From a candidate division FCPU426 bacterium (lineage in GTDB: Bacteria; Oederibacteriota; JAAXVQ01; JAUVAV01), in contig JBFLYH010000001.1 of the NCBI GenBank assembly GCA_040756875.1, positions 992,001 through 1,056,000 of the forward strand: a stretch of DNA of 64,000 nucleotides, given 5' to 3'. Shown here piece by piece: positions 13,168 through 49,312 of the stretch (position 1 is its first letter; each line of letters starts with the position of its first letter). The notes below the pieces were generated by a model, which had not been told where the DNA came from, did not search any database, and saw only the letters and a list, made by a program, of their open reading frames with translations. The position numbers were made by a program, and so were the translations under genes.

Positions 13168-13208
13168 CGCTCGCTCTTGATATTCTATGGTTGATCTCAA
13201 TGCATCCT

Positions 13209-14147: not shown

Positions 14148-14169
14148 CGTTCCATCCAGCCTTAAGGAT

Positions 14170-14263: not shown

Positions 14264-14272
14264 TATTGTTTT

Positions 14273-33200: not shown

Positions 33201-36200
33201 AAGACCACGGTATTGATGCCCTCGAGCAGATTGATGGGCTTGTCTGCGGTGCTATACAATTGAAAGACTCCGTCTTCGGTAACCGGCGCTTCCCAGAAAA
33301 CTTCGTAGTTAAAGGACACCTTCAATTTGCAAAAAGCTACATTGCTGTCTTGAATGATCCCGCGCAGGCCTCGATAGGGTTTATCTATGCTGATGCGGCC
33401 TATATCCTGGACCTGTTGGTCTTTGGTCAGCATGTATAGCCCCACTCCCGGGTGGGTGCGGGGCGTTACGGCGCATTCATGCAAAGGTTTGCCGTTGATT
33501 TCAAGCCCGTAGATTTTTGGCCTTTCCATGGAAATGAGTTTGGCGATCTCTTCGCTGGCATTGGGGCCCGAGAAATGCCAGCCTTTGACTTCCACCTGCT
33601 TTTCTACCGTTTGCGGGGTTGATTTATTCAGTCCCATAAGCCGGCTCAGCGCCAGAGGCGAGCCTTCGGTTACGCCGTCCGTGTTGATGACATAATCCGT
33701 GGCAAGATAGGCCAGCGCCCCCACGATCACCGCGCCCGGAAGCCCGCCGGGGATATTAATGGATATGGAAGGTATCCATGAAATAAGTTTGTTAAGATCA
33801 GGCAGGTTTTGCAGGATAAATTCTTTGACATGATTGCGCAAGGGGATCTGGATTTTTTCGCGAAGCAGCAGGTCCACTTCGCTGTTGACCCAGCGGATGG
33901 GCATTTTGCGCAGGTCTTCCAGAGGAATGAACAGCATTTCGATTTCCTTGTCCAGTGCGGCATATAGCTGGTCCGCATCGCGCGTTTCCGGCATGGCGGT
34001 GATAATGGCTGATGTCTGATTGCCAACCACTGTGTTTATGTTGTTCTGTATATTGCTCACGGACGCAATCAGGCTGTTTATCCGGTTTTCTATTTCCACG
34101 GTGGGTATCCAATTGCGGATTTCGGCTGATATGGCGTTGCTGACCTTGTCCTTGGTTTGCGAACCAAAAGCGTTCTGTATGATTTTACCCACGTCGTTTT
34201 GCAAGGGATGGTTGATGAAATTATTCAGGTCATTGACGCTTCCCTGCTGTAATTGGCTTTTCAAGTCCTCAAGCGGCCCTCTAAACCATTCGGCCGCGGT
34301 ATTGGTCGGGTTGGTTATATATTTACTTACAAATTCATCCACGGTTTGAGCAACAACCTGTTTATAGGTGAGGAAATCCGTGCCGGTTCTGGCCAGCAGT
34401 TCCTGCATTCTGTTTCGCACCTCTTGCTTGACCGCATCTTTCAACCAGGCATCGTACATGAGCTGTTTTTCCGCGTTTTCCAACACTTCGTTGATTTTAT
34501 TCTTGATGGGCTTGAATACCGAGCGTTCCAGCTCCTCCTCCAGCTTGCTGGTAAGTATTTCCGCCACTTCTTCATTTAAATTGTTATAGGTTTTGCTTTT
34601 TAAATCGAATAATTTCACGCCGGTATATTGCCCGCTGGCTCCCAATGCTGCAAATCCCGCGACAATGATCACCTGAATTCCGGGGTCCATATCCGGCCAC
34701 AATCGTGTGACCACACTGGAGGTAGGTATATTTATATCCTCGGTGTTGAACTGGTTTAAGTCTTTCATGAAGTCCGAGCCTGACTGAAAGTTCCCGGCAT
34801 AATCAAAACGTCCCAGAGCTAGTCCGATGAGATTCAGGGGATTAATCACTAAATCGTTACGGTTGCTGGTGCGTAAAAACGATAAAAAACTCAAGTCAGG
34901 CCCGTATGCTCCCCAACGGTTTTCCAATTGAGTTAACAGGTTGTTCAACCCTAGTTTTTCGAGCCAGGGAACCACGGGCGAAAACAGCAGGTTTACGGCG
35001 TAGGATTGGGTCGCCATGGGAAGGCTGTTGACGCCATTCAAAGGAGTGCCGATAGTGACGAGTTTTGCGATCTTGTCAATGGGTGTATTTTCCTGCAAAT
35101 ATTTTTTCGCCAATATCCCGGCCTCGCCCCAGGCCATAATGGTGACTTTCTCAGTCCTGGATCTAATATAATTTTCAATTTGGTTCTTAATGGAATCCAA
35201 TTGCAGGTCAATGCTTCCCCATTTCTGTTCTCCATAGATATTGCCCATGCGAAAATCGATGCCGCTGTTTATTTCGCCCAGCCCGGAAAATATCCCGCCG
35301 ATGGAGCTCAAACTGCCGAAAAGGTTGCGCAAGCCGCCGAATTCAATCCCTCCCAGGGAAAAAAGGCTTGAAAGCATAAAATTGAGATTACTAGTGCCGC
35401 TGTTCTCCCTTATGTTTTGCGTGGTCGTGGCGTTTGTGTTGCTTTCATGAGTGGTTGCCGGTTGGTTTACATTGAAAGAATGGGTATTGTCGCTAACACC
35501 GTTTCCATAAGCGTTCTCGGCGTATATTTCAATTTGCACATCGCCGTAAACGTGGTTGCCTTGTTCATCTTCGGCGTTCCATTTAAACTTCAGGCTTTGA
35601 TCGCCGGCAACTTCCACATCAGGAACCGGCTTGCCTTGGGCCAGCATGTTCACCAGAGAACCCGAAGGCTTAAGGTACTTGAAGTACCAGGTTCTAAGCT
35701 GTCTTCCGTTTTGCACCAGCCGCACGTGCAGGCGGTATAAATAGTTCATGGAATCCGTGACGCGCAGGCTCATGAATTGCTGGGCTGCCGAGCAGGTAAT
35801 GCTCTCCGCGGGGGTGGCCGAAGTTTGTATAGTTTCATCGCTGAATTTGACTGTTTTTGCATAATTCTTGGTTTCTTCGTTGCCTGCCGCGTCCATAAAA
35901 GTGATTTTTGGGGCCAGGAGACTCTGCGTGCCGGTCAACCCGCTAAAATCCAGTTCAGCCGACCATTTGGTTTTTTCGTCCGTTGTATCGTCGTCCGCCT
36001 CTTGCACGGCATTGGCTTTAATCGAGATGCTCCCGTCGCTGTTTTTAACCTCGACCGACGGGGGCATTTCGGGGTTGATGTTCTTTTCTTCGATTTCGAA
36101 TTTGAATTTGTATTTGCGTTTGCCGAGAAGGTACTGGGTGTCCGCGGTGTCCACTTCCGTGTTGTTGCTGACGCCGTTGGTGTCGGTGGTGTTGTTGACG

Positions 36201-38245
36201 CGGGTTATTTGGAGAGGGGTGAGAATGGGTTTTATCAGGTCCACCGTCAGTTCATATCGCCCATAAGTATTGGCATCATTTGGAAGTATTTCGCCGCTGG
36301 CCGTGCTCCCGTTATTGTCGTCCCTCCGTGCCGTTAATATAATTTCCACTTTTACGCCATCCGCAAATCCCAAGGAAGCTATATTAATGGTTTTGCCCCA
36401 GGTAAAATAAGGTATTTCATCTTTAACCCTGGTTAAGTTTCTAATGGGAGATGGAGGGCCCAGGGGTTCCGGGGTCGGAGCCGGAGTGGGTGTGGGGGTT
36501 ATTCCAAATACTTGGGTTTTATAAAGGTTGTAGATTTGCTCATTCGCTTGGCTCATGTACTTCAACGGCAACAAACTATCCAAGGCCAAGGTGACTTCCT
36601 TGCCGTTATGATTGGTTATTTTAACCGTCGGTTTTTGCGGTTCCTTGTCGATTTTTCTGTTGAACTGCACGGCTAGTTTGAGGTCGTCGGAATTAATGCA
36701 GGCCTGGGAATCTGAAGTTTTAGTAAAATGGGGGGCGTTATTTACTTTATTCCAGGTGCCGTCTATAACATTTCGATATTTGTCATTTCTCGTCTGTTTG
36801 GCAATGAGCCGCTCGACTGTTACGTCTTTAGAGTTGTCTATATGGATATCATAAGTCTTTTTAAATATCTTTGAACCCCGAACGTTTTTAGCGACGATGA
36901 TGATTTTTCCGTCTTGAAGTTCGGCATTATTTGCAAGGTCTTGTATTTTAGGAACACTGTTACTTCGTCCAGTCCCTTGTGCATTCCAGAGATCATCTTT
37001 ATCCCATTCTGTATATAGGAAGATATCATTTCCACATGGTATTTTCTTAATACTTTCCTCACCCTTAGGAACATATTCATCTATCGGGTAAAATAATTGA
37101 TAATATCCCGTTTTATCCCAGCTTTTTGTATAGTATGTGCCGATACCGGTTATCGAATTATAACCTGATTCAATATTTGTATTTATTGGTGATCCGGGTG
37201 TATAGGGTGTTGTGGCAAGACTGGTAGGTTTTCCTCCAAAACTGAATTGCTGGATAAGATGCTCGTCATCTTCTTCATCATAATATATTTTGACTTCCTC
37301 TAGGTCCGATTGACCTTCCAGGACAGGGTCACCATACGAATTAATAAAAACTCTCAAATAATAACCTTGGAAATCTTCAGTAAAAATGGGAACAACTGGT
37401 CTTTGCCATTCATGATATTTACCATTTGCAAGTTTTTCACCTAATAATCTAACATCGTATTCGGTTTCTCGATGAGGAATATTAAACATAGGATTGATAT
37501 TTACTCCCAATCCAGAATCAATGTGCAAGTGGACTGGGTACTCCTTGCCTTCTAATACCCACGTTTCAATTCCATTAATTGTTTTTATCGTCCATCCACC
37601 TGAATTTCCAACCGCTCCGATCCAATTATGAGTCGGCAACATAAGCGTGTTTCTTGTAACCGCGGCAATTGTTGTTCCCTTTTGCATTACAAAAGAATCC
37701 AAATCGCTTGGATAACGCACCTTTATTTCCGCTACAGGCCCGATAATGTATTTTGCTTTTTTATTTTCTTTGTCATCCCATATAATAACAGTATTATTCT
37801 TATTAACGTCCTTTATAAAGGAAAATGCTGGGTCTGTATTATTGGTATTGTTAGTATCAATATAAAGGTAATTATTTGTTCCGTTATGTGTGATCCCGCC
37901 AATAATGTAAGGGGTATTCCCCTTGTATATATAATCATTATTAAATAAATGCAGGTAGCGATACTCTCTTTTCCTATCTTCAGAACGAACCCTTATGAAT
38001 ATCAAATTAGAATCCTCGTCTTGCTCAACTTGAAGCACCGTACAATTTTCCATAGTCTTTGCGCCGCGGCCTTCCGGAATAGGAAGATCAATTGCTTTGT
38101 GATAATCAGGTTTACTTCCCAATAACCGCGGACCAAAATCATCCGAGAATCTAGTGGCTATCGACTCAACCGAAATTGCTATACCAGAAAATATTAGTAA
38201 AACTAATATTGTTATGAGTAGTACTCCGATTGCCTTACGTACCAT
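15254..38245 (-). CDS. Giant (~7,663 aa) secreted multidomain surface protein / putative toxin-adhesin
   Basis: Single uninterrupted ORF. Likely start ATG 38245 (GGGGTG RBS, signal peptide MVRKAIGVLLITILVLLIFSGIAIS). Contains M23 motifs HKAID/YLH/HLH, a degenerate lipase fold, ~19 FlgD-type 'FSPNxDG...WDG...G.Y...D.AGN' repeats, an HFS motif, two PA14-like domains, a Thr/Pro linker, NHL repeats and a terminal FlgD/CTD-like domain. Confidence 0.9.
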   Translation of the reverse strand: MVRKAIGVLLITILVLLIFSGIAISVESIATRFSDDFGPRLLGSKPDYHKAIDLPIPEGRGAKTMENCTVLQVEQDEDSNLIFIRVRSEDRKREYRYLHLFNNDYIYKGNTPYIIGGITHNGTNNYLYIDTNNTNNTDPAFSFIKDVNKNNTVIIWDDKENKKAKYIIGPVAEIKVRYPSDLDSFVMQKGTTIAAVTRNTLMLPTHNWIGAVGNSGGWTIKTINGIETWVLEGKEYPVHLHIDSGLGVNINPMFNIPHRETEYDVRLLGEKLANGKYHEWQRPVVPIFTEDFQGYYLRVFINSYGDPVLEGQSDLEEVKIYYDEEDDEHLIQQFSFGGKPTSLATTPYTPGSPINTNIESGYNSITGIGTYYTKSWDKTGYYQLFYPIDEYVPKGEESIKKIPCGNDIFLYTEWDKDDLWNAQGTGRSNSVPKIQDLANNAELQDGKIIIVAKNVRGSKIFKKTYDIHIDNSKDVTVERLIAKQTRNDKYRNVIDGTWNKVNNAPHFTKTSDSQACINSDDLKLAVQFNRKIDKEPQKPTVKITNHNGKEVTLALDSLLPLKYMSQANEQIYNLYKTQVFGITPTPTPAPTPEPLGPPSPIRNLTRVKDEIPYFTWGKTINIASLGFADGVKVEIILTARRDDNNGSTASGEILPNDANTYGRYELTVDLIKPILTPLQITRVNNTTDTNGVSNNTEVDTADTQYLLGKRKYKFKFEIEEKNINPEMPPSVEVKNSDGSISIKANAVQEADDDTTDEKTKWSAELDFSGLTGTQSLLAPKITFMDAAGNEETKNYAKTVKFSDETIQTSATPAESITCSAAQQFMSLRVTDSMNYLYRLHVRLVQNGRQLRTWYFKYLKPSGSLVNMLAQGKPVPDVEVAGDQSLKFKWNAEDEQGNHVYGDVQIEIYAENAYGNGVSDNTHSFNVNQPATTHESNTNATTTQNIRENSGTSNLNFMLSSLFSLGGIEFGGLRNLFGSLSSIGGIFSGLGEINSGIDFRMGNIYGEQKWGSIDLQLDSIKNQIENYIRSRTEKVTIMAWGEAGILAKKYLQENTPIDKIAKLVTIGTPLNGVNSLPMATQSYAVNLLFSPVVPWLEKLGLNNLLTQLENRWGAYGPDLSFLSFLRTSNRNDLVINPLNLIGLALGRFDYAGNFQSGSDFMKDLNQFNTEDINIPTSSVVTRLWPDMDPGIQVIIVAGFAALGASGQYTGVKLFDLKSKTYNNLNEEVAEILTSKLEEELERSVFKPIKNKINEVLENAEKQLMYDAWLKDAVKQEVRNRMQELLARTGTDFLTYKQVVAQTVDEFVSKYITNPTNTAAEWFRGPLEDLKSQLQQGSVNDLNNFINHPLQNDVGKIIQNAFGSQTKDKVSNAISAEIRNWIPTVEIENRINSLIASVSNIQNNINTVVGNQTSAIITAMPETRDADQLYAALDKEIEMLFIPLEDLRKMPIRWVNSEVDLLLREKIQIPLRNHVKEFILQNLPDLNKLISWIPSISINIPGGLPGAVIVGALAYLATDYVINTDGVTEGSPLALSRLMGLNKSTPQTVEKQVEVKGWHFSGPNASEEIAKLISMERPKIYGLEINGKPLHECAVTPRTHPGVGLYMLTKDQQVQDIGRISIDKPYRGLRGIIQDSNVAFCKLKVSFNYEVFWEAPVTEDGVFQLYSTADKPINLLEGINTVVLVAENKYGGIARQVFQINLDMMPIQIAPNYPTYEAFIREKRPVMSAIIYNTDINNNIPAGNIGIALQKVNTATAEAESLDAEVLAVTPEKLTFRLAAQEADLSNGYYTILIKAKDEVGKESQSAWGFYFDDEAPLVDIKMADNLAFTHTAPEAPERLRVRYEISDNLSPLLSETRITIRRAGDHIAVYSETMQTRSVGSALFSWDYKTSGDHPMFVAAGDYELVVETKDLAGNQGGQTKPFKIDLTPPVILPGLTLLRMDTAQTPITDNRVNNDFNGFYVKYSVDGDCSVKFVMYNETKNLSYYGAQRAYAQNRRVVDVDENNEPIYQTNPNNYFAWDLTNPFMNIPDGVYTLMLVPEDDAGNVGVMESIAGIIVDRKPPLVTDFAVQPYVLAGEGANVNLYYTISQADDIPEFQGDPVNVEIKVVKKDDLGTVRVFDPAMVLANPAVKIETHSVEYDGNDSQTSQPVPMGRYAFVITATDSHGSHVTKYADFIKEGVAPYISYPDDPAEKLYNTVVIRGLALDPVRTNPAKFKEYRLYYRSGQHEAPSALADLSAWETSEIEVPVINRKSESEKNISLRTVDNNGVLGYWHAQNLADGEYTLLLVDLEEDTVDSSGQTLAGIRMMDTAVALVDKTVPANDPSAPNPVITVQFSNPPPSHNFTTDPQLAIDYTLGLQDVNQADVSLTIFDAGNRQVSHQVQLGVNDREIDAQPPFESIIPINQNTDSCGIYVWQDNEAWHLRINGDGDANTRNAYRFAGILKTDGLFKVTNVIFDRENEEGITYQTGNNIGFECLADSQEHTQGALEGFDFTTTGEWVSFDLYNNGAPLTQEHPDWINIYGQTETSGNVVTKYYVKTKQQFTWDGQDPYGAMVPNGPYTFVLSAVGYGNRGYAEASQNIQLTSPLSLIQAYVDPPVFSTYAGLGSGNTALASSSLRFILSKDALVSVDVIDPNNGDAPVCTLTQGVLCQGGGEWEHSVQWRGNSPTADSRLLLAVGNAAYQFRLHAQATDDPGQTIDRKYNVTINNAQGAGVSASLETVGNTETPIAGIPSIRGESSYYLEIFGEGNWYPPIPFEYTLHAFGTQTIVQYPFVPFVTKARKYYDAVTAMAAVPAPNDGLLTYRERDYKVSAEFIGYYLLDGEKQHSYYPSELNNRVHTFTRSQPKLIFDHSYLSPAKYNNWLNTAYYKEDIQRAHYSVAIKPIGLDALFDVLHFDIVQNQREVTQSASEMGNFAFSSPYNETPMIRAKDGWDNAEIRFWNSEIKYQGWDPAFSFNNLTNRFTQWASENGYYYGAPGDGEEIVTIKDGGSEIDDLTRPGDVPEFPYRDGSTKHYYINYTLEGVADTKDIASPCKYKYVNYWNSAENDFDTQDPFNTYLMFAPEYASYLSDGPHYRYDLYPVSSGETWKPADEAPLSYTPGKSTLNDRNRILFDKIGPHKFRAHSQLWLPVFEAPFPFSPSEQKDRTIVDFILNELNGNPDKHWNKTYFPKVGEVGYYSPNSNYMELNPDKSFINYGDEPGNASWVRKTNQWLRYDPAVDGYAYEIDPLEDFNQGVLYTYGPEIVEQGNGSDTPITFETGQPGVAGKEKKIQNITLEGFNTGDIVNLSDLPGKQADIYLGANGTEKVYFNGKDFDTYWSTADDPALNNTNGLIVSAPDSMTFDSAPKMYLLKELYPFSNQNPAETNHSIYGLNTYWATGYGGVSATPQDNPEISIADWKIQTRYMDGSLCEDFQIYNRAFHENTFHTHEGQEFTDAFEFKLVESPGGKWLVEIRGTAGGAGLDHYEIYYYDDDGWHLIMNSADPDYADRIAHYPAGVLGYWDVTNLVGRYTVLLRAVNGQGGAATATDEVVIGKYIEAGSTLPEHSIAHDPYKRSTLQFKPGSFEENTVVSVNSVPLTKAKVAVKPAIIPLGPVIEIKADKKIEFNDPEDQPTLTFRFTYAEAVEYGLIGSTNIMTIYHMDAEGELEPLSTDISYYKLVDGSYEPPTNGSYQDEFENGDPGYVIVAYASVQHFSYYLVLKGGPLPANITLDQPVSPVNVAGIAIDGTGAVGQEVECWVDDDAEYADQGGGDSTPPVLQTQTFAITTPISGLNTIGAYSLAINLPFEGDNYLYVKYQNLENSPMAMRVVNRDLRPAQFTLFEVLNPKFSPNGDGVKDQTKIRFSLDEPATVIYKLYDTSGNEMETQELPLAPSLAKRGDGGVEEITWDGLKADGTTYPEGIYTVRLFVADSMGNISPESSQVKSIWLDLTPPEITDTIADLGAFSPGNDGINDTIGVPFALSEYAYVTATVRDADNNIVWRLGDPLALTAPAQHSLIWDGSVLNDSWLSEKVYTVHLKAVDEAGNSSITKYCQVAVDLTTLTISRLSVMPGVFSSHGGSSKLTYHINDDADVTIKITQMGNTDYPDGMVRVIQSNLRQSPGYHSVSWDGLNDAHQSVTEGTYTFRVVATDTSGNPAEPQNIAVSVANDTALPLASIVDILPNTITPNCPTSVGQNDVARIKFSLYDEVTSGDGISGPLKDIRLRIYKYGQLVRDLAQYASLPQGDAHITSWDGKDNAGQYVADGSYTVLVTCKDNSGNPSTSYRPESRGVVYVDNQAPEVFDVSSSPRVLSGSSGNDHVVIRYFLRDNLQNTPGFNFHTSISIFNYNDPANALKTVDSAVDGAEWNQVDWDLSGMAESIYFFRITTQDPAGNPARESGYAGVVVDKTPPEVNVVSVDIDTPFSPNPPLGDGLKDTNELKYFCADNTDKTPQMTVKVCPSGNLNNPILKLLDNTSVAGGNTHAAVWNGKDSGGITAPEGSYIYEVLAVDEAGNSAYAYSGPVTLDITSPAEFGSITINPEIFSPNSDGIKDETAITYVTPAEETVITHKIVGEADRFNWEAEGQGLYYPPKTFEYEVIVEGQRTNYEYVTFTCRVEVKGIDNNTIPPTIVFPLERGVAYDPVEFNWVLTKDFECWGLDGIPSLGDGVEAKYFDRYSSIGPFEVDPYGPVETRIEDTPYYDWGLGGPEGVQNGPPDYGPMIDGFQARWRGVLYIPPHEQTLIYRATSDDGQYLSSFDLSFPNNINAMIEDWHERYDDLPVSQIYESHSAINRDQLDGLQYDMFEKNNTGLPNYAVAKLEWNQGPEGAWEPIPRQYWYSRTPSIIHVTDDSTTGNAVWNALDNYTGKYAGTFVPVSPSAYNLHYRENWPPTLPPTYYTAKYMVETNGDSITALVQGNSITALTYAHDSSGYVLDPNTDQPAPWRDTYCRGLYTEYYQDTGFVDLAATTITPTVFYDWIDDQPNTTPFPHVFDHEGPIYVPNPDDNSQGTPLPQVNADAAFSVRWTGLLYTPYNKTYTFKVKTYGEKVALWIGNQKIIDAHQSGMQEPCGDTLLAAGQWYPIRFELINYGEYQEYDPYMQEGDERELLWGWSDQFGNYQGDHPIPPEYLAVKSWREEPNVRTHHKKGYYSRRLNDLLVAPKTIYQKETLHEAPITVTTNTNTVYAAFYSADGSIDYGSTISYTDPYANDFHIIAEPIDGAGTSVLPWAITSPRRVVTADYLHNSFVAFAYLPGSIPNSNNADALDEVKKVTIKFYDPATHEEVTNTISAYFEYNLDWPGSQYLPNGVTFTCSSSEPFSTRPVQTFRKENDEVRLNFAGAGEPRNVFDSTGAYLPPEIANRVKINYWSITPTSTDGSIRTDVLIENIITHKNEDPDLDHYNGDFTVRLSDSLVIRTLADGNTLAASTSVEQTWDGKTNLGVVAPDGTYTSKLWAYDQAWNWTLTNRPVSVDNTPPDVSISSPGDFSQVTGSISILGKATDEHFSQYWLFAKPVGASLWNTLTASGRPMAGPQDLLGVVDSSGLNGDWELRLAAEDEAGNRSETTRTYTLINDSDFVLQLYPGYPLISPNGDGVLDTYTLTAYLPQAAVWDCDIYPAGQTTKIRTLAYQETAGPDTATLVWDGKLADAITTAPDGDYYFNLTATATIGTNTLKAYRSGKVEVDTTTPTARLDAPAWGSQVEGTVELRGTAWDKNFLQYRLFYFPADDMSNPILLLSSNTSKTQEHLGWFNSQGLQGDYILALWVMDAAGNVGLDFKSVSVDNQAPNVAIMSPAPDEVIVGGNIQVEALIDDPHLATWSLQYGESYAPMNWSELASGTANVPQAVIHVWDTKPLQGEYTLRIIARDQAGNQTVIKRKVVLDNAAPLAVIDSPTDNAAVNGLVEIVGIADDPYFKEYKINLYHEGTKNTKKIGTKAIIAGTLCEWDTSKEEDGIYNIELVVFDSAGNSSYAHAWNILIDRQGPGLVRIESPRAPDDDLGANPLLHGTVDVRATITGDDLDHYLLKYLDLNAAQADWKTLTANALSAPVSNAVIHAWDTTQILLASEGGSGAGGAYLYILKLNAYDQAGNETSDEVTVEIDNEAPLVAIDSPLDQSYLHGQADVFGTVTEAHPGLSTLTLLPPSGSPVELSITARPLDHSHVCRLDTTSHMDGAYQLALRHEDLLGHEASQTIGMTLDNTVPQAIIVSPGPDTPVGQSLSIMGTADDANFKIYKLELDHEGTKYTQEGNGRIVNGVLGMWDASLMIGSAVASLYVEDLAGNANTTSMQIVFDHTPPILTDLGADPNPFSPASSNNQITRIRFGLNEACQVSLCVLDALGNTLQSQTSGFPMTSPGNDNFFTWDGKNTSGDIMPAGIYAYFLSAIDLAGNLGAPAVGQVTVSDDITPPIITSLQVEPAWISPNNDGVQDETQLTYQVEDGAATQVRTRLEIIGPDAAVVLVNGIEDAGQIHSAAWDGKDSQGTLALDGEYRIKLTAWDAANNPAVVEKPVYVDTAAPQAVGTAIPDLISPNSDGMLDSTQITLNLSDNFPVYVTYSVQVRDAADHIMRTLGENHAVLPYDTQYIWNGLKDDSNRVNDGIYHLYLGMQDQAGNAAAVNPVEISVDLTPPEVEINYSQSPYTDTAGNHYSRFGTHPWLDRYDPVVNNMSSGVARTVYQVRRAADPVTPLNGLREYNGGPFYLLDVWVDAEGTTHFAYWQDGEYAADFMSVDAGGNTMPLRTRLFRSDNTAPAAWMEQDGMPIVQGHETSPDRVLALAASDNYSGLSATALSIDQGVWTFNPQPFSLVVGEHSLEYYAVDNVGNSSNVASLNVRVLEPTATPTPTATWTATSTQTPTATATPTDTATPTASPTDTATPTASPTASDTATATASPTATDSDTPTASPTETDTPTPTFTATPSATATGTTTDTSTATSTHTGTATFSPTATGTATASSTATSTATSTVTMTATATPTATVTVTATSTASATATPIGGNGCLILSPCEGSLVNGYVHVVGIATAAKKKDFQGYVLAYRPAAGGALVTIAQGDHPVVIGLLGAWNTCGLEQGLYELVLTVTCRGVQLNAPTIMTHSVRVRVGDWTFLGQIGTGVKGCSNQQFNEPWDAEVDGTSCLYVSDSKNNRVQKFDAGDQYLQTIGAKGTRPGEFKLPTNIDVSKPFHTLSLSPGGRGEGEGENELYVTDYQNKRVQVLDLQGNYIREYAAAGDVLQWPVSVCLSNDNVGYILDGNGKVFYVDDADALRPIKDWPDGVSAACYDPLAHYTDLAAGRALTEEAYYLGLNDARVLDRVHQVANKVEKLDAQGNPLYSYKGTQNKYEPQNVKIGPLGNVWISDLENHRIQEFGPYGNLIGAFGGFGSVHGKFDRPHGVTFKEGRDVQLNAPAEHYAYVVDTGNHRVQKFRLDLAEAAPTPGPTATPAARLEVLALNSQPAVFIPKEGQKTSISYFVTKPAMVSLAILDRFGGMVKGYSEQEISRAGELQFVLWDGRNNFGHIVEPGMYTIRAEASAGQEHAASTALVTILPKGAELPTPIPSPTGVITPVWTPTPEPTKTPVPTKTFTPTVSPTVTPDLELHDCYAAPNPFRPEEGQTTWIHYTINLDAKVVITIRSKTTGKVVMVFGPFAPGAPNGQAGHNQVEWDGHEDLGDDVTGACHWRSYKYNCAISAEVLGQTEERNIEIIKEIYK
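16158..16186 (-). repeat. Degenerate GTAG-type REP inserted in frame in the giant gene (GRDVQLNAPA)
   Basis: GGTCGGGATGTTCAATTGAATGCCCCGGC shares the TTCAATTGAA core with the perfect palindrome at 17093; lies in an NHL loop. Confidence 0.7.
16777..16818. repeat. CCCTCTCCC...GGGAGAGGG REP-like element in frame in the giant gene (TLSLSPGGRGEGEG)
   Basis: CCCCCTCACCCTCCCCTCTCCCTCCTGGGGAGAGGGATAAGG resembles the intergenic repeats at 6688, 14170 and 55139; lies in an NHL loop. Confidence 0.75.
17093..17122. repeat. Perfect 30-bp GTAG-type REP palindrome in frame in the giant gene (CRGVQLNAPT)
   Basis: TGTAGGGGCGTTCAATTGAACGCCCCTACA is its own reverse complement and spans exactly 10 codons. Confidence 0.9.
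17378..17842 (-). repeat. Low-complexity Thr/Ala/Pro/Ser linker (~155 aa) in the giant protein
   Basis: PTATPTPTATWTATST...TATPTASPTDT... repeats separating the Ig stalk from the C-terminal NHL/FlgD module. Confidence 0.9.
19601..19632 (-). repeat. CACGAAG-type repeat in frame in the giant gene (DHEGTKYTQE)
   Basis: Minus-strand GACCACGAAGGTACGAAGTATACGCAGGAA resembles the tandem units at 48914-49105. Confidence 0.65.
20545..20577 (-). repeat. CACGAAG-type repeat in frame in the giant gene (YHEGTKNTKK)
   Basis: Minus-strand TTTACCACGAAGGCACAAAGAACACGAAGAAGA versus intergenic TCACCACGAAGACACGAAGGGCACGAAGGAGG. Confidence 0.75.
26609..26655. repeat. Nested palindromic REP-like element in frame in the giant gene (ELPLAPSLAKRGDGGV)
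   Basis: Outer arms AACTCCCCC/GGGGGAGTT and inner arms CCCCCTCTTT/AAAGAGGGGG; lies just before the WDG motif of a FlgD repeat. Confidence 0.8.
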
Positions 38246-38261
38246 AATACACCCCATAAAA

Positions 38262-39125: not shown

Positions 39126-39176
39126 CCCTGCCTCCTGTTGGTGTTGTTTCAATATCATAGTGATATTTCTAATCAA

Positions 39177-39884: not shown

Positions 39885-39980
39885 TTAAGCATCCCCCTTT
39901 TGTTCTAATTATTTAGACTGTTAAAACATTTTTTCCTTTTATCTTTTTTCATATTTTTTATACCCGCGAATAGTTTGTTT

Positions 39981-41579: not shown

Positions 41580-41660
41580 CTCGACCCCTCGGCTGATGTA
41601 GTAGATGGCGAGGTTTTAAGTATAGCACATCTTCCCTTGCCCATCAAATTAGGCACCCCC
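41576..41660 (-). promoter_or_regulatory. 85-bp promoter/RBS module, copy 1
   Basis: 84/85 identical to 47672..47756. Minus strand reads GGGGGTGCCTAAT-TTGATG-N17-TATACT (extended TG)...GAGGGG...ATG. Confidence 0.8.
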
Positions 41661-42659: not shown

Positions 42660-42732
42660 ATATCTTTCGACCCGGCCGCCAGTTTTTCCATGCGTTTTAT
42701 TTTACTCATTTTGACATCTATACAACGTCCCC
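41666..42732 (-). mobile_element. RAYT-type element B bounded by 26-bp terminal inverted repeats
   Basis: 41666-41691 GGGGACGTTGTTTAAATGTCAAAATG versus the reverse complement of 42707-42732, GGGGACGTTGTATAGATGTCAAAATG (24/26); no target-site duplication seen. Confidence 0.8.
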
Positions 42733-44506
42733 ATTCACTTTTCAGCCCTTCTTCGGTTTCTCCATTCCATAGAAATGTAAGAAGCTTCCCTTGGTTGCCA
42801 TCCGAAACAGTCACGGTTCCTGTGTTAGTGCCGGCTTCAGGGAAAGCCACTGTAGCCTGATTGGAGTCATAATTGATTTTCCAGTCAAATAAGGAAGGCC
42901 AGTCTGTATTGGTGGCCGTCCCCACCTTGAAAGCGGCTTCGATGTTAAGAATGCCCTGCGGAGAGCCGGGAAATTCGACGGTGAAGATGGGTTTGTGGGG
43001 GGAAAAAGAGTACGAACCAAATAATACTTTTACGAACATGGTTAAAAGAGATTTATAGCTTACCTTCGTATTTAAATTGTGATTATTTACTAGCGGATTA
43101 CCAGCTGTGTCATTTGCATCGCCGACAACTATATAATATTCATCATCACCAAGCAAATTATCTTCGGCATTGAAGCTGGCTATCCATGTATCCCTGGAGT
43201 ATTTTGTTTTCTTAACAGAAGAATAAATAAGGTCAACCGGATTTTGCCCAAGGATGGCAGATAATGCACTACCTCTTACGGCAACGCGTATCTGCGGGTC
43301 AGGATTTTCATCCATTTCTTCTGAAAATACCACTTCCACTTCTGCCGCACCCTTGGAAATAGGGTTATTGGCCAATAATTCGATGTTTTCACCTTGTATA
43401 CCCGTAAATCGAGCGTGATATTTTAGTTTTTGGGATTGCTTAATCTTAATCCATTTAATGTATGGGCGGAAATTATCTACGATCACTTCCGCTTCGGCGG
43501 TTCTAGTGCGGGCAGCTATATCAGCAGTAATAACTCGAACTAGATATTTTCCATCCGGATATTGGGCATCGTCATTAATTTGCGCTTCTAGCATTAATCC
43601 CGCCTGATGTTCTTCAGGTGTTAATTCTTTGCGATTTGTCGGCCAATATTTATTTGGTTGGTTTAGACTAAAAGGATCCTTTGATACCCAATAAACTTGA
43701 TCAGAAGCATAAACATAGTTAAAGTTTCTTTCCCCAGCATTACTACCTGTCGCCCCGCCCGGGAGATCATCAAATCTAATTTCGGGAAATTCAATGATTT
43801 TAGTATTCCCTTTAAGTACTTCGCATTTTAAGTAATATAGACCTACTCTATTCGAATTATGTCCCCCCAGAGAGTCATAAGCAGGTATTTTTATATCAAC
43901 ATTACCGTTAAGATGAGGAAAATGAACCTCACTGTAATCATCATGCGGCAAGAATCCTATTTGGTTGCCGTAGGAATAGGATTGTATGCTGATATTTCCT
44001 GTATCCAGAAAGCCATCAAGGCCATCTGGGCGAAGAGGATTATAATAGCATTGCGAGTCTTTTTCGGTTAAGTGGAGGTGGGAAGTCCATCCAATTGTAT
44101 TTAGCTTTTTTAAGTATCCTATAACTTCTCCAGCAGTTATTTTTTCATTCTCGATTAAATCAATATTATTTTGAATATGGACATAAAATAAATCTCTTCC
44201 TCCAATACTGATTAAACGTACCGTCTCATTATCGGAACCCACTAAATATTTTGTAAATCTACCATCCTCAACAGCGCAAACCGTGGTTCCAATGTCACCA
44301 TCACTAGCCGCCGCATTAATATCGATACCAGTATGTAAATGCCCAGGGCGATATTCACCCAAAGTTGCAGAAATATATTGAATTGTATTGTTTTCGTCAT
44401 CAATGGTTCCAGAGCCATTTGAATCGAGCGGCCAATAATAAGCATTAGCTATTCTACCCAGAATAGCAGTAGTAAACAGGATAATTAAATGACTACATTT
44501 TTTCAC
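42733..44506 (-). pseudogene. Truncated M23-peptidase/Ig-domain protein resembling the giant protein's N-terminus
   Basis: Signal peptide, M23 motifs HTGID/YVH/HLH, Ig-like domains (VDNFRP; VEVVFSEEMD...DTAGN), then a FlgD-type 'FLWNGETEEG' that is cut at the element-B inverted repeat. The last ~68 codons of the 659-aa ORF are read-through into the element. Confidence 0.75.
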
Positions 44507-45783
44507 TGTGAATACCTAATTTTATGTATGAGATATTGATCACTATTCGATGCATTTCCATATAAATAAATGGTTTTATGAATAGGTTGTACTATGAGCT
44601 GAATATAATCATAATTCATTTTTAGTTTACTTCTTATTTCGCCAAATTCAATTATTTGTGTTTTTCCATCTTTTACAATTATTCTCGATCTTTTCCGCTC
44701 CAAATATACTAAACCACTAAGTAAATCGTTCTCTGAAAACATAAAATAATAATTTCCTGGTCTTTCTAAATCAACTTGATCCATTAATTCCCCATTTGAA
44801 TTAAGAAACAATACTTTTTGATCTGGCCGTCCATCACTTTCATACTTAGGCAACTTATTTAATTTGAGAATGTGCATTTTGTCATATCGTGATTCCCCAA
44901 TGACGGTTCCGCAATAGTATCCAGATATCGGCAATGTCTTGCGTAGTATTTCTTTGCCATTCTCATCCCATTTCACTAACTCTGGTTTTTTACTTCCTAT
45001 AACACCAACAATAATATTGGTTTTTTCAGAAATAGCATAGATTGGTTCTGGTATTGTATAATCGCTTGTTTGCAATCTTATAGTTGATGTGTCGCCGCTT
45101 CTGCTTACAATGGAAAAAGAGCTGCCTCCACCTGCAAATTGTTCGAAATCAATAAGTTTATTTTCTGATAAAGGTTGCACTCTCCCAAACATTCTCGGTT
45201 CTGGCTTCCATAGCTCATTCCCTTGATCGTCATACACTGTCGCCTGCCAGGGTACAGACATGTTTTTTTCCGATTCATATTCAGTCAATTCCCTCACCGG
45301 CATGCCGACGATGATATATTTATTGTCTTCTGATTTGCCCATAAAGATTAATCCTGGTATCTCTTTAGTAACCTGCCCCGAATAGTTCATGATCCGAATT
45401 AGACGGTTAAGTATAACCACTTTAGGATAAATAATTCTTTTCGTGTTTTGTTGGCCATTGGTTTCTAGCACATAAGCTGTTTGGGGAACGTCGTCATTTA
45501 TACCAATTTCGCTTTCACCCCATATCACCCTCTCCGCTCCTGGAAACTCCTTCTCCCACACCTTCTCCACCTTCACCTTCTCATCCTCATATATCACCAC
45601 CGGTGGTTTGAGGGTGCCGGCGTCCGCGAGGGTGGGCAGGGTTGAAACTACTGCTGCGGCGGTGACAACTGCTGTGGCTGTGGCGACTGCGGTGGCGGTG
45701 GCCACTGCGGTGCTAGTGCCCATGCCAAAAGCGGGGTTGATGATTAGAATGCTTGCGATGAAAGACAGAATGGACTTTTTCAT
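44503..45783 (-). CDS. Low-GC secreted protein with Ala/Thr-rich N-terminal linker; putative partner/immunity protein
   Basis: AGGAG RBS; signal peptide MKKSILSFIASILIINPAFG; propeller-like strands (KSEDNKYII, VYDDQGNELW, WDENGKE); stop overlaps the next start (GTGA). Confidence 0.7.
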   Translation of the reverse strand: MKKSILSFIASILIINPAFGMGTSTAVATATAVATATAVVTAAAVVSTLPTLADAGTLKPPVVIYEDEKVKVEKVWEKEFPGAERVIWGESEIGINDDVPQTAYVLETNGQQNTKRIIYPKVVILNRLIRIMNYSGQVTKEIPGLIFMGKSEDNKYIIVGMPVRELTEYESEKNMSVPWQATVYDDQGNELWKPEPRMFGRVQPLSENKLIDFEQFAGGGSSFSIVSRSGDTSTIRLQTSDYTIPEPIYAISEKTNIIVGVIGSKKPELVKWDENGKEILRKTLPISGYYCGTVIGESRYDKMHILKLNKLPKYESDGRPDQKVLFLNSNGELMDQVDLERPGNYYFMFSENDLLSGLVYLERKRSRIIVKDGKTQIIEFGEIRSKLKMNYDYIQLIVQPIHKTIYLYGNASNSDQYLIHKIRYSQ

Positions 45784-45918
45784 TGGTGTTTTAAGCTCCT
45801 TTTTCACTGGATTTGACTGCGGTTTCGTGGGTAATGGCGTTGATGTAGCAGCAATGGTTGTCCATATCCAGCCATTAAATTAGACAGGCATTAACATATT
45901 TCCATGCTATTTTTTAAA

Positions 45919-45995
45919 CGTCATTTCGGCATATTAAGCCGGAATCCAGTAACTTGATTTTCCTGGACCCTAGTTACAAATACACCGGGATTACG
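45919..45995. repeat. Degenerate GTCATTCCGG...GGAATCCAG / CTGGA...-type palindromic intergenic element
   Basis: CGTCATTTCGGCATATTAAGCCGGAATCCAG-N13-CTGGACCC...CCGGGATTACG, just downstream of propeller gene A. Confidence 0.6.
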
Positions 45996-46001
45996 TCAAA
46001 T

Positions 46002-47675
46002 TCACTTCACAATCGCCAGCTTCTGCCTGCCTGCTGACTTCCCATTCAATCTAATATCCGCCAAATAAATTCCCGGGCTGATACTGTCTGTTTTCCATAT
46101 CATTGTCTGCCCACGGCCGGCGGGAAGATTCTCGTTAACCTTAGCCACCAAGTCTCCGGTTATGCTGTATATCACGATCTCGACTTGGGCTGGTTCAGTA
46201 AGGTGTATCAGGAAATTCACCTGATCCCTGGCTGGGTTGGGGTACACCAATGCCGCTTTGCCGCCCAATTCCACACTGGCCAATGATCGCGTTTGCGTGG
46301 CAGTTGGCGAGACCGTAGCAGTTGGAGTAATGGTGCTGGTTGGGGTTATGGTGGGCGTTATGGTAAAGGTGGGCGAATGGGTATAGGTTGGCGAATGTGT
46401 AGGTGTAGGTGAATATGTCGGCGTTATCGTAGGAGTAGGAGAAATAGTGGGTGTGGGAGTGATAGTCAGAGTTGCGGTGTGAGTGGGAGTGTATGTCGGC
46501 GTTGGAAGAACATAGAATTTGCAATAGATTTTATTAATTGTGGCGGACTCTTCGGACCAAACAACATATGCAGTGTTATCAACAAATTCGAGTGCCGAGT
46601 TAAACACACGCGTATCATAATTAGGATCAATATTGAGACTCGAGCCATCCTGAATCCATTCCGAACCATCGAAGTGCTTCATAAATAAGTGTCGGATATT
46701 AAATATTTGCCCAACAACATACTTCATTTCATAAAATAATACATACTGAATATTATTAATGACTTTGATGTCTGTTGGATAGGCATCCTTATCCGATTCA
46801 ATATTTAAGATACTTCCATCTTGTAACCATTCACTCCCATTATAATGTTTAACATAAATTTGGTAATCACCAAAATAAGCTTCAGTCCAAGTCACATAAG
46901 GCGTGCTGCTATATACCGCAATATGCGGACCATTAGCAGACTGATTTAAATTATAATTCAGCGCCCCCCCTACTTGTTCCCAAGTTGTACCATTTATTTT
47001 TTTGACATATATTTTGAAATCTTCCATCCACGTAACATATGGTGCCGAAGCAATTGAAATGATATCTGGATAATAAGCAGAAACGTTCCCGTCTAAATTC
47101 AACATCCCCCCATCCTGCTCCCAAGCGTTCCCATTCCAATGCTTCACAAGAATGTGATACGCAGTCACGGCATCTTCATGCCAGGTCACATAGGGCGTGG
47201 CACCATCCATGGCAATCGCCGGATAATCCGCAAACTTGGCCGGATTGACATTCAGGCTTCCGCCTAGTTGCTCCCAACTTGTGCCATTGAGGTATTTCAA
47301 ATAGACTTGCCGGGTGTTCCCTTGGTCTTCAGCCCACACTACATACGGAGTGCCGTTGTAGGCTGCAATCGCCGGATTATATGCGCTTTCCGCCGTATTG
47401 ACGTTGAGGCTTACTACCGAACCGCTGGCATGCACCCAAGATACGCCATCGTTCTTCTTGACGTAGATCTGATTTTTGCCCGAAGCATTCTCCTCGCTCC
47501 AGACTACAAACGGCGTGTTATTGGATACAGCAATATCTGGATTAGTGGCATTATGAGTGGGGTCCACATTGAACACGCCGCCGTCTTGCACCCAATCGGC
47601 GCGTGCAGTTGAGGAAATGATTACAAGAGCCAGAAAGAACAACAAACGCGTCGTGCTTAGCTTAGCCCGATGCAT
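46002..47675 (-). CDS. Secreted repeat beta-propeller protein with Thr/Pro linker and T9SS type-A-like C-terminal domain (paralog A)
   Basis: Same architecture as 39981..41579; CTD 'VYPNPARD...IYSITG..V...PGIYL...KLAIVK'. Confidence 0.85.
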
Positions 47676-47756
47676 CTCGACCCCTCGGCTGATGTAGTAG
47701 ATGGCGAGGTTTTAAGTATAGCATATCTTCCCTTGCCCATCAAATTAGGCACCCCC
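47672..47756 (-). promoter_or_regulatory. 85-bp promoter/RBS module, copy 2
   Basis: 84/85 identical to 41576..41660; TTGATG-N17-TATACT promoter and GAGGGG RBS. Confidence 0.8.
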
Positions 47757-47772
47757 ATTTTCCTTTCCCTCC

Positions 47773-48873
47773 GGGGCTGGAGTCAACTTATCAACTTAAG
47801 CTTTTGTTCCTCCGCAACCTTCTCTCCGACTTTGATCAACTTTGCCAGCGCTGTGCTCGATATTTTCAGATACCGGGCGACTTCCGCACTGCTATAGCCA
47901 AGCTCTTTGCATCCCCAATAACCTATCAGCCCTTTGGCAAACGATATGGTGTTTCTTCTTCCTTTTTTCCCCAACTCCGATTTATCCACCCCCGTAAGCT
48001 CACATGCCCTTTCAACCAGTCGTTCCATCGTCCAACCTCCACGACGATTCTTTTCTTTCCTATTCATCTCTTCTTCCGCTCGTTTTAATACTTCCACAAC
48101 AAACTGGTCATCGCCCAAAATCAACTCCTGCCCGCGCCAAGTATTTCGGACATTATTTTCTTCTGTTTGACTCCTCCAGTCGTTCTCTTTCCGTTTTAAA
48201 TTGCCCCGAGTGAGTTCTGCACGTTTGCCTTGATCCCAACCCTCGCGAATATATTGGCGATAGGCTCGGATTGCGTCTGCTCTTTTAGCACTGAATGGTG
48301 ACAATACTTCCCCAGTGGTTTGCCATGAATTTCTCATTGTTCCGATAAGCGTTGCATGCCCGGTCCAGGCGTATCTATCCAATTCTTTCAAGTGTTTGAT
48401 TATTCCGGCACGCACGGGATTTAAATGAATATACCGGACCAGTTCCATCAAATACCCGCTCTCCTGACAGAGGATGGACTTAAATCTATTTTGGTACAAA
48501 TAGCCGCGCCGTTTATGCCGCCGGTTGAAATGAGCCGCATAGCCTGCCAGAAGCCTTTGCATGAATTCGCTCAATGATTTTTCGGATATTCGCAGGAGGA
48601 GGTGGATATGATTGCTCATCAATACCCAGGCATAACAACGGCACTTATAAAGGCACAGGTTTTCAGATAGTCTTTTTACAAATTCACTTCGATCGGCAGT
48701 ATCCATAAATAGCGCAGTGCCATTGATCCCGCGGGTGATGACATGGTAAATTGCCCCAGGCAGGTTGATTCTCTTTTGTCTGGCCATATTCATTTAGACT
48801 GCCATTTTAATATTTCCATTCACCTCCTGAGAATGATTCGGCTTTCTTAAGTTGATAAGTTGACTCCGGCCCC
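47773..48873 (-). mobile_element. RAYT-type element A bounded by 28-bp terminal inverted repeats
   Basis: 47773-47800 GGGGCTGGAGTCAACTTATCAACTTAAG versus the reverse complement of 48846-48873, GGGGCCGGAGTCAACTTATCAACTTAAG (27/28); no target-site duplication seen. Confidence 0.85.
47783..48787 (-). CDS. HUH Y1 transposase (RAYT/TnpA-REP type) with a DnaA-C-like HTH C-terminus (element A)
   Basis: YHVITRG, AWVLMSNHIHLL, YLYQNRFKS and YIHLNPVRAG; HTH tail; stop codon lies inside the terminal inverted repeat. Confidence 0.9.
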   Translation of the reverse strand: MARQKRINLPGAIYHVITRGINGTALFMDTADRSEFVKRLSENLCLYKCRCYAWVLMSNHIHLLLRISEKSLSEFMQRLLAGYAAHFNRRHKRRGYLYQNRFKSILCQESGYLMELVRYIHLNPVRAGIIKHLKELDRYAWTGHATLIGTMRNSWQTTGEVLSPFSAKRADAIRAYRQYIREGWDQGKRAELTRGNLKRKENDWRSQTEENNVRNTWRGQELILGDDQFVVEVLKRAEEEMNRKEKNRRGGWTMERLVERACELTGVDKSELGKKGRRNTISFAKGLIGYWGCKELGYSSAEVARYLKISSTALAKLIKVGEKVAEEQKLKLIS

Positions 48874-48885
48874 TTTCATTAACCT

Positions 48886-49105: not shown

Positions 49106-49312
49106 AATAACCCCAATAACCCTTTAAGTTCTAATCATAAAGATTCAGAAAACAGTATATCTATCCAATCTTGCCATCATTTGCTTTCTTCGTGTTCGGG
49201 GTCGGCAATACCTTTCCTATCATTAATACTTATTACCCACTTATCATTTCATTTATTCATGCCGTTACTACCAATAACCCAGATCGGGCTTAATCAACAA
49301 GGCGGTGCAACG

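Follow-up and report, generated by a model that had tools for sequence, protein, structure and literature searches.

A candidate polymorphic-effector locus of reversed polarity encoding a giant surface protein in an uncultured groundwater bacterium

Organization of the locus

The window analyzed here, i.e., the whole stretch of 64,000 nt at positions 992,001–1,056,000 of contig JBFLYH010000001.1, comes from the 3.22-Mb genome (G000) of an uncultured groundwater bacterium and contains a gene for a giant protein preceded by two gene units of the same layout. The giant open reading frame (ORF) of 7689 aa occupies positions 15254–38323 of the minus strand, where all genes of both units also lie; the database record of 7663 aa begins at Met27. 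The N-terminal tip of the giant is assigned to a predicted cell-wall-cutting family, and the possible exchange of this tip, together with a small gene coupled to it, is the subject of this report. The objects for comparison were 99 genomes of the phylum and 11 genomes of the family. In this family set, G001 belongs to the same genus as G000, G004 (a fragmented assembly of 350 contigs) to a second genus, and G003 to a third one. Two further giant-type proteins, P0003 (7612 aa) and P0039 (a 1,148-aa fragment), were taken from public data.

In the order of transcription, each unit consists of a ~1.1-kb element flanked by inverted repeats, a promoter-like module, a gene for a propeller-like protein with a type IX secretion system (T9SS) tail, a gene for a low-GC secreted protein, and a head. 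This twofold layout had been proposed in the initial annotation of the window, and the minus-strand coordinates of both units confirm it. Unit A comprises element A (47773–48873), in which 28-nt terminal inverted repeats (47773–47800 and 48846–48873) surround a gene of 336 aa (47783–48793), the first copy of the 89-nt module (47672–47760), the gene propA for a repeat-rich, propeller-like secreted protein (46002–47675), the gene lowA for a signal-peptide protein (44503–45807), and the orphan head M23A (42527–44506), for which LowA is the partner. In M23A, an M23 peptidase is combined with Ig-like domains and with a junction domain of the giant type that is truncated. Unit B comprises element B (41666–42732), with 26-nt terminal inverted repeats (41666–41691 and 42707–42732) around another gene of 336 aa (41649–42659), the second copy of the module (41576–41664), the propA paralogue propB (39981–41579), a LolA-like gene (39177–39884; NCBIfam LolA2_flexi, E = 5.9e-7, under the cut-off), the gene lowB for a signal-peptide protein that is the partner of the giant's resident head (38262–39176), and this resident, type-1 head itself (about aa 27–906; 35606–38245). 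The latter includes a signal peptide, an M23-like domain with a large insert, a variable middle part and, C-terminal to it, the junction domain (aa 840–960; 35444–35806). Both units, including the elements and modules, read on the minus strand.

The two copies of the module are 98% identical over 89 nt (84 of 85 positions by BLAST), in contrast to the proteins of the two units. The transposase-like proteins of the elements share 42% identity and PropA and PropB share 39%, M23A and the giant head have no BLAST similarity, and LowA and LowB are likewise dissimilar, with hhalign aligning the signal peptides only. The GC content is 31%–41% over lowA, M23A, lowB, and the giant head versus 59%–62% in the contigs of G000, and in both G000 and G003 the heads and partners are much lower in GC than the giant body. 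PropA and PropB carry the T9SS type-A sorting domain (TIGR04183, 32.7 and 34.7 bits with a cut-off of 23; Por_Secre_tail, 35.4 and 39.8 bits with a cut-off of 27), and propeller genes form a multigene family in G000, with further paralogues at similar identity. A near-identical module beside divergent heads and partners, heads and partners richer in AT than a genome of about 60% GC, and propeller genes with a C-terminal sorting domain (CTD) had all been noted from the letters of the window and were all upheld.

The module was found at just these two places in the whole of G000 and in none of the 10 other family genomes. Both copies carry TTGATG-17-TATACT, with TG ahead of the second hexamer, and the sequence preceding the ATG is rich in purines; matches of this kind to the promoter consensus are frequent in the region, with 36 found versus 23.5 expected. 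From these features the 85–89-bp module appears to be promoter-like, namely an outward-facing promoter and 5′ leader beside the right end of each element. A structured RNA was considered and dropped, since the transcript folds no better than shuffled sequences (z = 0.51) and no Rfam match was found in positions 36000–53000. The near-identity of the copies is recent because the orthologous spacer in G004 is ~340 nt long and loosely alike around the −10 region only. It most likely arose via gene conversion between the two spacers within G000. The identical tract stops exactly at the repeat of the element and at the start codon, for which the sole reason we can offer is that homology stops there.

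Logan contigs of the probable source run represent the locus as four pieces, i.e., 36000–41605, an 85-nt piece, 41631–47701, and the sequence from 47727 onward, with depths of 50.4, 76.9, 48, and 56.5, respectively. Since the contigs break at both copies of the repeat and the repeat forms a piece of its own, the 6.1-kb segment with propA, lowA, M23A, and element B could have been misplaced, having come from a co-assembled strain or from a circle; a graph with one 85-nt repeat fits the tandem order and a circle plus a shorter chromosome alike. Such an artefact is very unlikely in view of the similar depths of the three long pieces, the difference between the repeat copies at one base of the shared 85 nt, and the independent occurrence of element B beside a propB homologue in G004. 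In addition, the junction of M23A and element B lies within one 6,071-nt contig, and therefore the truncation of M23A is not an artefact of the 85-nt repeat. Run X2, from another study, covers the LolA-like gene and propB at about 96% identity and leaves most of the head uncovered. One X2 contig bridges positions 37972 and 38732 with 761 other letters (compared at 85% likeness), which weakly suggests that a relative exists in which the 3′ half of lowB and the head start have diverged. Another joint in X2, from 42737 to 45801, was disregarded since it had 23 letters on one side only.

The giant protein and its relatives

Pfam domains FlgD_ig, Big_13, Big_3_x, PA14, and NHL were identified in the giant. 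A relative of its body was found in 3 of the 99 phylum genomes, G000 included, and the locus was absent from 8 of the 11 family genomes searched. The N-terminus is the variable end of the giant and the C-terminus the conserved one, with the C-terminal third being the best-conserved part. Among the N-terminal parts, the most conserved is the first segment of the body after the junction domain (33224–35626, aa 900–1700), which is 80% identical in G004 and 39% in G003 and has no Pfam or NCBIfam match.

In G004, the 3′ part of a transposase gene is followed by homologues of propB (62% identity), the LolA-like gene (71%), and lowB (70%), while the giant, 70%–78% identical to that of G000, begins on another contig (C309). 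We take unit B, including its element, to be common to the genera of G000 and G004. In G003, a LolA-like gene, two propeller genes, and a low-GC ORF of 320 aa precede a giant of 7,178 aa. Two frames, of 7178 and 408 aa with a 16-nt overlap, make up the G003 giant, which is interrupted at about position 165400 of G003:C2, near the conserved C-terminal part; the interruption is a frameshift or a sequencing error.

Two unrelated heads were found on homologous bodies, an M23-like one in G000 and G004 (70%–74% identical) and an Amidase_6-like one in G003, P0003, and P0039 (45%–55% identical to one another). The first ~700 residues of the G003 giant are unrelated to the G000 giant, and the shared body starts at about residue 907 of the latter. 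Two head types on homologous bodies with a conserved C-terminal third bear out the suggestion that the N-terminus varies while the C-terminus remains constant. P0003 is a mosaic: its residues 1–4000 are 55%–83% identical to G003 and 20%–50% to G000, while residues 5251–7500 are 56%–86% identical to G000 and 38%–70% to G003. SecD of G000 is 74% identical to that of G003 and 74%–78% to that of G004, whereas the giant is 40% identical to its G003 relative and 74% to that of G004. Moreover, no giant was found in G001, despite a SecD identity of 91% and its membership of the same genus. Measured against SecD sequences, the similarity of the giants does not follow genome phylogeny.

Head domains

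M23A scored 26.6 bits with Pfam M23, under the gathering cut-off of 28.7. Its family includes 139 database representatives, most of which carry the domain as their N-terminal module and reach lengths of up to 3254 aa. Residues H58, D62, H110, H143, and H145, forming the zinc-binding and catalytic HxxxD and HxH motifs, are invariant in 50 aligned relatives. A structural model built from this alignment had predicted local distance difference test (pLDDT) values of 80–96 over residues 1–475, and Foldseek matched it with a probability of 1.00 to LytM, lysostaphin, LasA, NMB0315, and StM23, with target-normalised template modelling (TM) scores of up to 0.68. The best hit of a PDB sequence search (E = 0.049) was also a LytM. 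Judged by motifs and the modelled fold, M23A looks like an enzymatically intact M23 peptidase. It resembles LytM, lysostaphin, and LasA in both respects, and here such an enzyme is the first domain of a protein of several thousand residues.

The resident head of the giant had no Pfam match. It contains a conserved ‘...VHLHID...NINP’ segment after an insert of ~110 residues, of which the HLH...NP part aligns with M23A relatives without being significant alone, and its HxxxD and HLH motifs are conserved in G004. By sequence this head looks M23-like. The proposal that both heads are M23 peptidases was thus substantiated for M23A by motifs and fold, while the giant's head, lacking a Pfam match, is M23-like with an hhalign probability of 85.6%. 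The G003-type head gave 22.3 bits with Amidase_6, just under the cut-off of 23.2. PDB sequence searches returned no match for the resident head (best E = 1.6), the G003 head, or an orphan head on contig C27 of G004. For this orphan, a permuted papain-like amidase was considered and found to be unsupported by Pfam or NCBIfam; its catalytic domain is without a family match.

The heads might serve the producer itself, with a hydrolase at the leading end making openings in the peptidoglycan of its own cell to allow export or anchoring, a periplasmic regulator or chaperone as the partner, and the diversity reflecting interchangeable wall-cutting modules. Three unrelated enzyme families acting on one substrate class at the same position (M23A being well supported, the M23-like and Amidase_6-like heads less so) fit this explanation, as do the LysM protein, LolA-like genes, and outer-membrane-like protein conserved around the giant. 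We consider it unlikely, since housekeeping roles rarely yield unrelated alleles in close lineages, low-GC modules, orphans, and mosaics, and the locus is missing from most of the family genomes searched.

Partner genes

In all five heads with available upstream sequence, a small ORF overlaps the head start or ends no more than about 70 nt from it, the distance being a few nt in four cases. The stop of lowA overlaps the start of M23A by 4 nt, the stop of lowB lies a few nt ahead of the first in-frame ATG of the giant in G000, and the distance from the upstream ORF to the head is 1 nt in G004:C27. In G003, the frame of the 320-aa ORF closes 26 nt before the open frame of the giant and about 40 nt before its first ATG. 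LowB and the giant start of G004 sit on different contigs; LowB is 70% identical there and is conserved alongside its head. Partner types were mutually dissimilar in the three pairs compared, i.e., LowA and LowB, LowB and the G003 partner, and the G003 320-aa protein and the product of the C27 upstream ORF. Among the four head types for which upstream sequence is available, the tightly coupled partner gene differs from one type to the next, in agreement with the initial placement of the partner upstream of the head.

Signal peptides of LowA and LowB were recognized by eye. No family match was obtained for LowA, and word-based, length-limited searches for homologues of LowA and the G003 partner returned the queries alone (for LowA, 1 of 8,000 candidates was scored). 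ESM Atlas models, taken as leads only, pointed to a beta-propeller-like fold for both LowA (TM 0.51–0.59) and LowB (TM of about 0.5). A complex prediction with M23A residues 20–345 and LowA residues 60–434 yielded a median score of 0.51 versus 0.00 for the best of three controls, with runs agreeing in at least 43% of contacts and a partner pLDDT of at least 67. Among 80 solved complexes, 58 reached the mark used, compared with 2 of 110 mismatched pairs; only 7 of the solved complexes did so with a score of 0.60 or under, as did both passing mismatches.

TIRYT elements and orphan heads

Both element proteins contain the IS200-like Y1 HUH domain Y1_Tnp (43.5 and 42.5 bits, cut-off 23), with the HxH (HUH) motif and the motif RYIHLNP, the tyrosine of which we take to be catalytic. 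The NCBIfam model REP_Tyr_transpos matched them at 75.6 bits (element A) and 79.8 bits (element B), just under the cut-off of 80. The C-terminal parts of the two proteins align with each other; a C-terminal helix-turn-helix (HTH) was hinted at by Bac_DnaA_C in element B (26.9 bits, under the cut-off of 31.5) and just by HTH_17 in element A (17.3 bits). The 28-nt terminal repeats of element A, 96% complementary, begin with GGGGCCGG, and the 26-nt repeats of element B, matching at 24 of 26 positions, begin with GGGGACGT; they fit the consensus GGGGWSAS in the GGGG and at just one or two more positions. Neither set of flanks is self-complementary, and they do not form the GTAG palindromes of the repetitive extragenic palindromic (REP) type. 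TIRYTs, or TIRtrons, are described in the sections on this class in Quentin et al. 2018 (PMC6006769, subclass 2.1) and Di Nocera et al. 2013 (PMC3733652) as encoding Y1-HUH proteins like the REP-associated tyrosine transposases (RAYTs), with a C-terminal HTH or Bac_DnaA_C-like domain, and as having terminal inverted repeats, many of which fit GGGGWSAS, at their flanks in place of REP hairpins. By their sequence features, elements A and B belong to this known class of RAYT relatives. The initial annotation, which linked the locus to RAYTs, was correct in pointing to related Y1-HUH enzymes, but the class is TIRYT/TIRtron and not the REP-flanked RAYTs.

Of 13 distinct TIRYT copies in G000 and its relatives, 11 had flanking inverted repeats of 21–28 nt that were copy-specific; a further copy had a weak one of 16 nt, and the search gave no output for the last copy. 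The number of TIRYT gene matches per family genome varied from two to thirteen, and G000 has two such genes in all, both in this locus. Solo copies of the terminal repeats also occur in G000, 16 of the B type (up to 5 mismatches) and 6 of the A type (up to 6 mismatches). They are partly clustered, often 80–100 nt apart, with both types mixed within the same clusters, and are located at C1:109109–110821, C1:826515–826764, C1:1273629–1274126, C2:197277–199671, C2:390329, C2:398516–398708, and C3:156622–167083. One C3 cluster adjoins another propeller paralogue and partial copies of a 70-nt repeat. The nine solo-repeat clusters lie at a median distance of 5.1 kb from T9SS-tail genes versus 25 kb at random, with 31 of 5,000 permutations being as close; this proximity should be read as suggestive only, because T9SS-tail genes are themselves clustered.

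The TIRYT family can be recently mobile, since in genome G007 same-orientation pairs with 99.4%, 96.7%, and 84% identity (on contigs C3, C13, and C2) flank 9–17 kb in a composite-transposon-like manner; the TIRYT regions of G007 are also low in GC. An M23-like ORF between two of these TIRYTs was rejected as a head, as it had no BLAST similarity to M23A and resembled by eye an ordinary cell-division-type LytM. The elements of the present locus are, by sequence comparison, old: they are 42% identical to each other, and the right repeat of element B is nearly unchanged on contig C60 of G004 (4 mismatches of 26), beside the propB homologue. The transposase on this contig and that on C27 of the same genome had no DNA match and are separate copies.

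M23A ends in the junction domain that is otherwise found just ahead of the giant body. Used as a query, it recovered the G003 giant (E = 5.7e-9), G004:C27 (7.8e-8), and P0039 (4e-11), and BLAST aligned it with the G003 head at 25.5% identity over 274 aa (E = 5e-13). Its homology ends at ‘...FLWNGETEEG’, about nt 42745, which is 13 nt before the outer end of the left repeat of element B, and its frame runs on through this repeat into the transposase gene. The orphan of G004:C27 is a fourth head type with the same junction domain, ~60 residues longer than that of M23A, and passes in frame into a 5′-truncated transposase gene at about its residue 81. Both orphans thus keep the giant-specific junction domain and abut TIRYT sequence. 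With two to few TIRYT copies per genome, such adjacency in two of two orphans is unlikely to be due to chance. A junction-domain profile detected five places in the 11 family genomes, namely three giants and two orphans; the orphan matches are partly circular because their rows were in the profile. A gene of 1,263 aa on G004:C343, upstream of the 5′ end of a transposase gene, was considered as a further orphan and is a complete T9SS cargo.

An active TIRYT-driven exchange of cassettes, in which HUH enzymes would cut at the repeats and insert a block of promoter, accessory gene, partner, and head into the junction domain of the giant to form an intact new-headed gene, would account for the contact of both orphans with TIRYT sequence, the presence of both TIRYT genes of G000 in this locus, their HUH and RYIHLNP motifs, the 84%–99% identical pairs flanking 9–17 kb in G007, and the proximity of solo repeats to T9SS-tail genes. 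It is quite unlikely. No repeat copy was found on the right-hand side inside the giant gene, the breakpoints of the two orphans are ~60 aa apart with one of them inside a transposase gene, the head of G003 differs without any TIRYT, and the elements here are old. The source-run contigs contain neither an excision nor a variant joint at the locus. Equally improbable is a mirror-image system driven by TIRYTs, which are not known to have had any role assigned to them since they were described; they would carry an outward promoter and mobilise the accessory–partner–head block into the junction domain, so swapping, along with its periplasmic immunity protein, the wall-degrading tip at the far end of a long surface fibre.

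The prediction that HUH element ends mark the rearrangement junctions was correct in that both orphans abut Y1-HUH element sequence, but a different head occurs in G003 without an element. The expectation about relatives was borne out in part: homologous giants with different N-termini and upstream partners exist, while the element is missing at G003. A present-day supply or switching of N-termini was not supported, as the junctions of the orphan and resident heads have no DNA homology and the source-run contigs have no variant joints.

Proposed past replacement of heads

We interpret the locus as a polymorphic-effector locus of reversed polarity that has undergone past head replacements, with an N-terminal variable tip and with the partner and orphans upstream; the probability of this reading is about 0.5. 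The first ~900 residues of the giant would be an exchangeable head, consisting of a peptidoglycan-hydrolase-type domain, Ig-like domains, and the junction domain, followed by the long body. Each head type would travel with its own unrelated small upstream gene, tightly coupled to the head start, the product of which, acting as an immunity protein, inhibitor, or chaperone, may bind the head or restrain it in the periplasm. Heads, together with large N-terminal stretches of the body, were probably replaced by recombination between lineages, and the previous 5′ module, from the promoter through the propeller gene and partner to the head, would have stayed behind upstream as an orphan interrupted within the junction domain. 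Unit A could be such an orphan, having been displaced from a giant that it once headed instead of being what remains of a lost paralogue, and unit B would be the resident module. The TIRYT elements at the breakpoints may be either the cause of the rearrangements or mere bystanders, and the heads presumably attack the walls of other cells.

Unit A could also be a decayed paralogue, the remnant of an old tandem duplication of the giant operon from which a TIRYT insertion and a deletion removed the upstream body. The differences between heads would then reflect domain shuffling, and the small genes would be accessories of assembly or export. An old duplication agrees with the 39%–42% identity of the proteins of units A and B, with other paralogues of the propeller family at like identity, with the lack of signs of present-day switching in the junction DNA and the source-run contigs, and with the occurrence of TIRYTs elsewhere among unrelated genes. 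What it leaves unexplained is why each head type has a different, dissimilar partner, why P0003 is a mosaic, why the similarity of the giants conflicts with that of SecD, why a second orphan with a fourth head type fused to a TIRYT exists in another genus, and why lowA and M23A have kept long open frames at 31%–39% GC. This alternative is possible but rather unlikely.

Several observations weigh against head replacement. The sample of giants is small, comprising three genomes, one full-length metagenomic protein, and one fragment, and scans of public metagenome and genome contigs with a body profile gave 596 and 135 pattern matches, none of which was confirmed. An M23A-type head was not found on this giant body; among the 139 matches it occurs on other proteins of up to 3254 aa. 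The M23-like assignment of the resident head comes from a profile of two sequences, aligned to the M23A-family profile by hhalign over 70 columns (E = 5.6e-6) covering the half from HxxxD to YxHL, and a single-sequence AlphaFold model of this head was unusable (pLDDT 40). The sole binding prediction, according to which M23A might bind LowA, is weak; it is the result (0.51 versus 0.00 in controls) of the multimer analysis that had been suggested for heads and partners.

The CTD that was expected at the C-terminus of the giant was not found either: Por_Secre_tail did not match, the last 299 aa had just FlgD-like matches and a PorU-tail match with E = 7.8e-4, and a hidden Markov model (HMM) built from 61 CTD sequences of G000 scored −0.1 at residues 7581–7621. 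The tandem order of the units rests on the assembly, given the contig breaks at both repeat copies, and the second orphan is located on a 2.8-kb contig, G004:C27, which could be chimeric. The ~60-aa distance between the breakpoints, one at the outer end of an element and the other inside a transposase gene, argues against one site-specific mechanism, and the missing DNA homology between the orphan and resident junctions makes simple homologous switching unlikely at present. In G001, a TIRYT pair 9 kb apart lies among unrelated genes. No TIRYT gene or repeat was present in the 50 kb examined around the G003 giant, and therefore the elements are not required for head diversity.

Comparison with known systems

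Polymorphic toxin systems have a variable C-terminal tip and a downstream immunity gene, and Rhs modules contrast in GC with their surroundings. Cell-wall effectors of the type VI secretion system have periplasmic immunity proteins. The locus shares with the latter a signal-peptide partner beside a predicted wall-degrading effector, here without a known family. It also has a long conserved protein with a tip that recombination has varied, as seen in two heads, two orphan types, and the mosaic P0003, while the variable domain is N-terminal and its partner upstream instead of a C-terminal toxin with immunity downstream. The locus resembles such systems in its workings and falls outside their customary definition.

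The Rhs, contact-dependent inhibition (CDI; CdiA), and MafB systems, as far as they are covered in the part of Zhang et al. 2012 (PMC3482391) consulted, resemble this locus in the long conserved delivery or stalk protein, the exchangeable enzymatic tip, the small cognate neighbour, the displaced tip and partner remnants beside the main gene, the low-GC modules, and the recombination mosaics. In the giant locus, the polarity is reversed, with the tip N-terminal and the partner and orphans upstream, and the tips are of cell-wall-hydrolase types, not nucleases or deaminases. Unlike in those systems, the orphans keep no DNA homology that would ease re-insertion, and toxicity and immunity are putative. 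‘M23’ is not named in the searched part of that paper. The TANFOR polymorphic toxins of Bacteroidetes, proposed to be antibacterial in the portion of the source used (PMC7073777), are also large secreted multi-domain proteins of T9SS-bearing hosts encoded near T9SS cargo genes; according to the same portion, their N-terminus is constant, the C-terminal toxins vary, and immunity is downstream.

The elements agree with the TIRYTs/TIRtrons of the sections cited above (PMC3733652, PMC6006769) in the Y1-HUH protein of ~330 aa, the putative C-terminal HTH, the terminal repeats starting with GGGG, the low copy number, and the dispersed, partly clustered solo repeats. Those sections connect the class neither with outward promoters nor with breakpoints of surface-protein genes. 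With RAYTs and REPINs they have in common the related HUH tyrosine enzyme, a low copy number per genome, dispersed repeats matching the gene flanks, and an orthologous element, shared in this case by G000 and G004. Their flanks are simple inverted repeats with internal direct 7–8-mers, not GTAG-tagged palindromes, and the repeat copies number 6–16 rather than hundreds.

No account of a comparable N-terminally polymorphic system was found in the literature, with supplementary files lying outside the search. If the proposed interpretation is true, it is the topology of export that decides where variation lies, in that the free end is the one that varies, and searches for polymorphic toxins limited to the C-terminus would miss this class. 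It would also give TIRYT elements their first biological context and would point to an uncultured candidate phylum whose giant surface proteins attack cell walls in a contact-dependent manner.

Neighbouring genes

Directly downstream of the giant (10060–15241, minus strand) lie a 322-aa ORF without a family, a gene for a 312-aa NHL-repeat protein, and a gene for a 1,067-aa LysM protein, a stretch of which weakly resembles SprA (E = 1e-8). All three are kept beside the giant in G003 (44%–55% identity), the 1,067-aa protein is also present in G004 (56%–62%), and none was found with a giant locus in G001. Together, the three might serve export or anchoring as a dedicated set. A 2,149-aa SprA-like ORF, with a match under the cut-off, is present elsewhere in G000.

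A second LolA-like gene, absent from the features listed initially, is located upstream of element A (51944–52747, minus strand; 267 aa; NCBIfam lolA, E = 1.7e-4, far under the cut-off). Its product is 46% identical to that of the LolA-like gene of unit B and 60% to that of the LolA-like gene at the G003 giant locus. It is followed by a gene for a DUF6340, outer-membrane beta-barrel-like protein of 616 aa (49880–51730, minus strand), which scored 40.3 bits with DUF6340 (gathering cut-off 26.4) and 24.6 bits with OMP_b-brl, under the cut-off of that model. An ORF of 232 aa with a HAMP domain (37 bits; 49181–49879, plus strand) may be a fragment of a sensor gene; it lies between the DUF6340 gene and three tandem repeats of ~73 nt (48902–49118, without strand). 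These repeats are 73%–84% identical, stand between the DUF6340 gene and element A, just upstream of the latter, and each hold several CTTCGTG-like words; partial copies of 18–30 nt occur elsewhere in G000.

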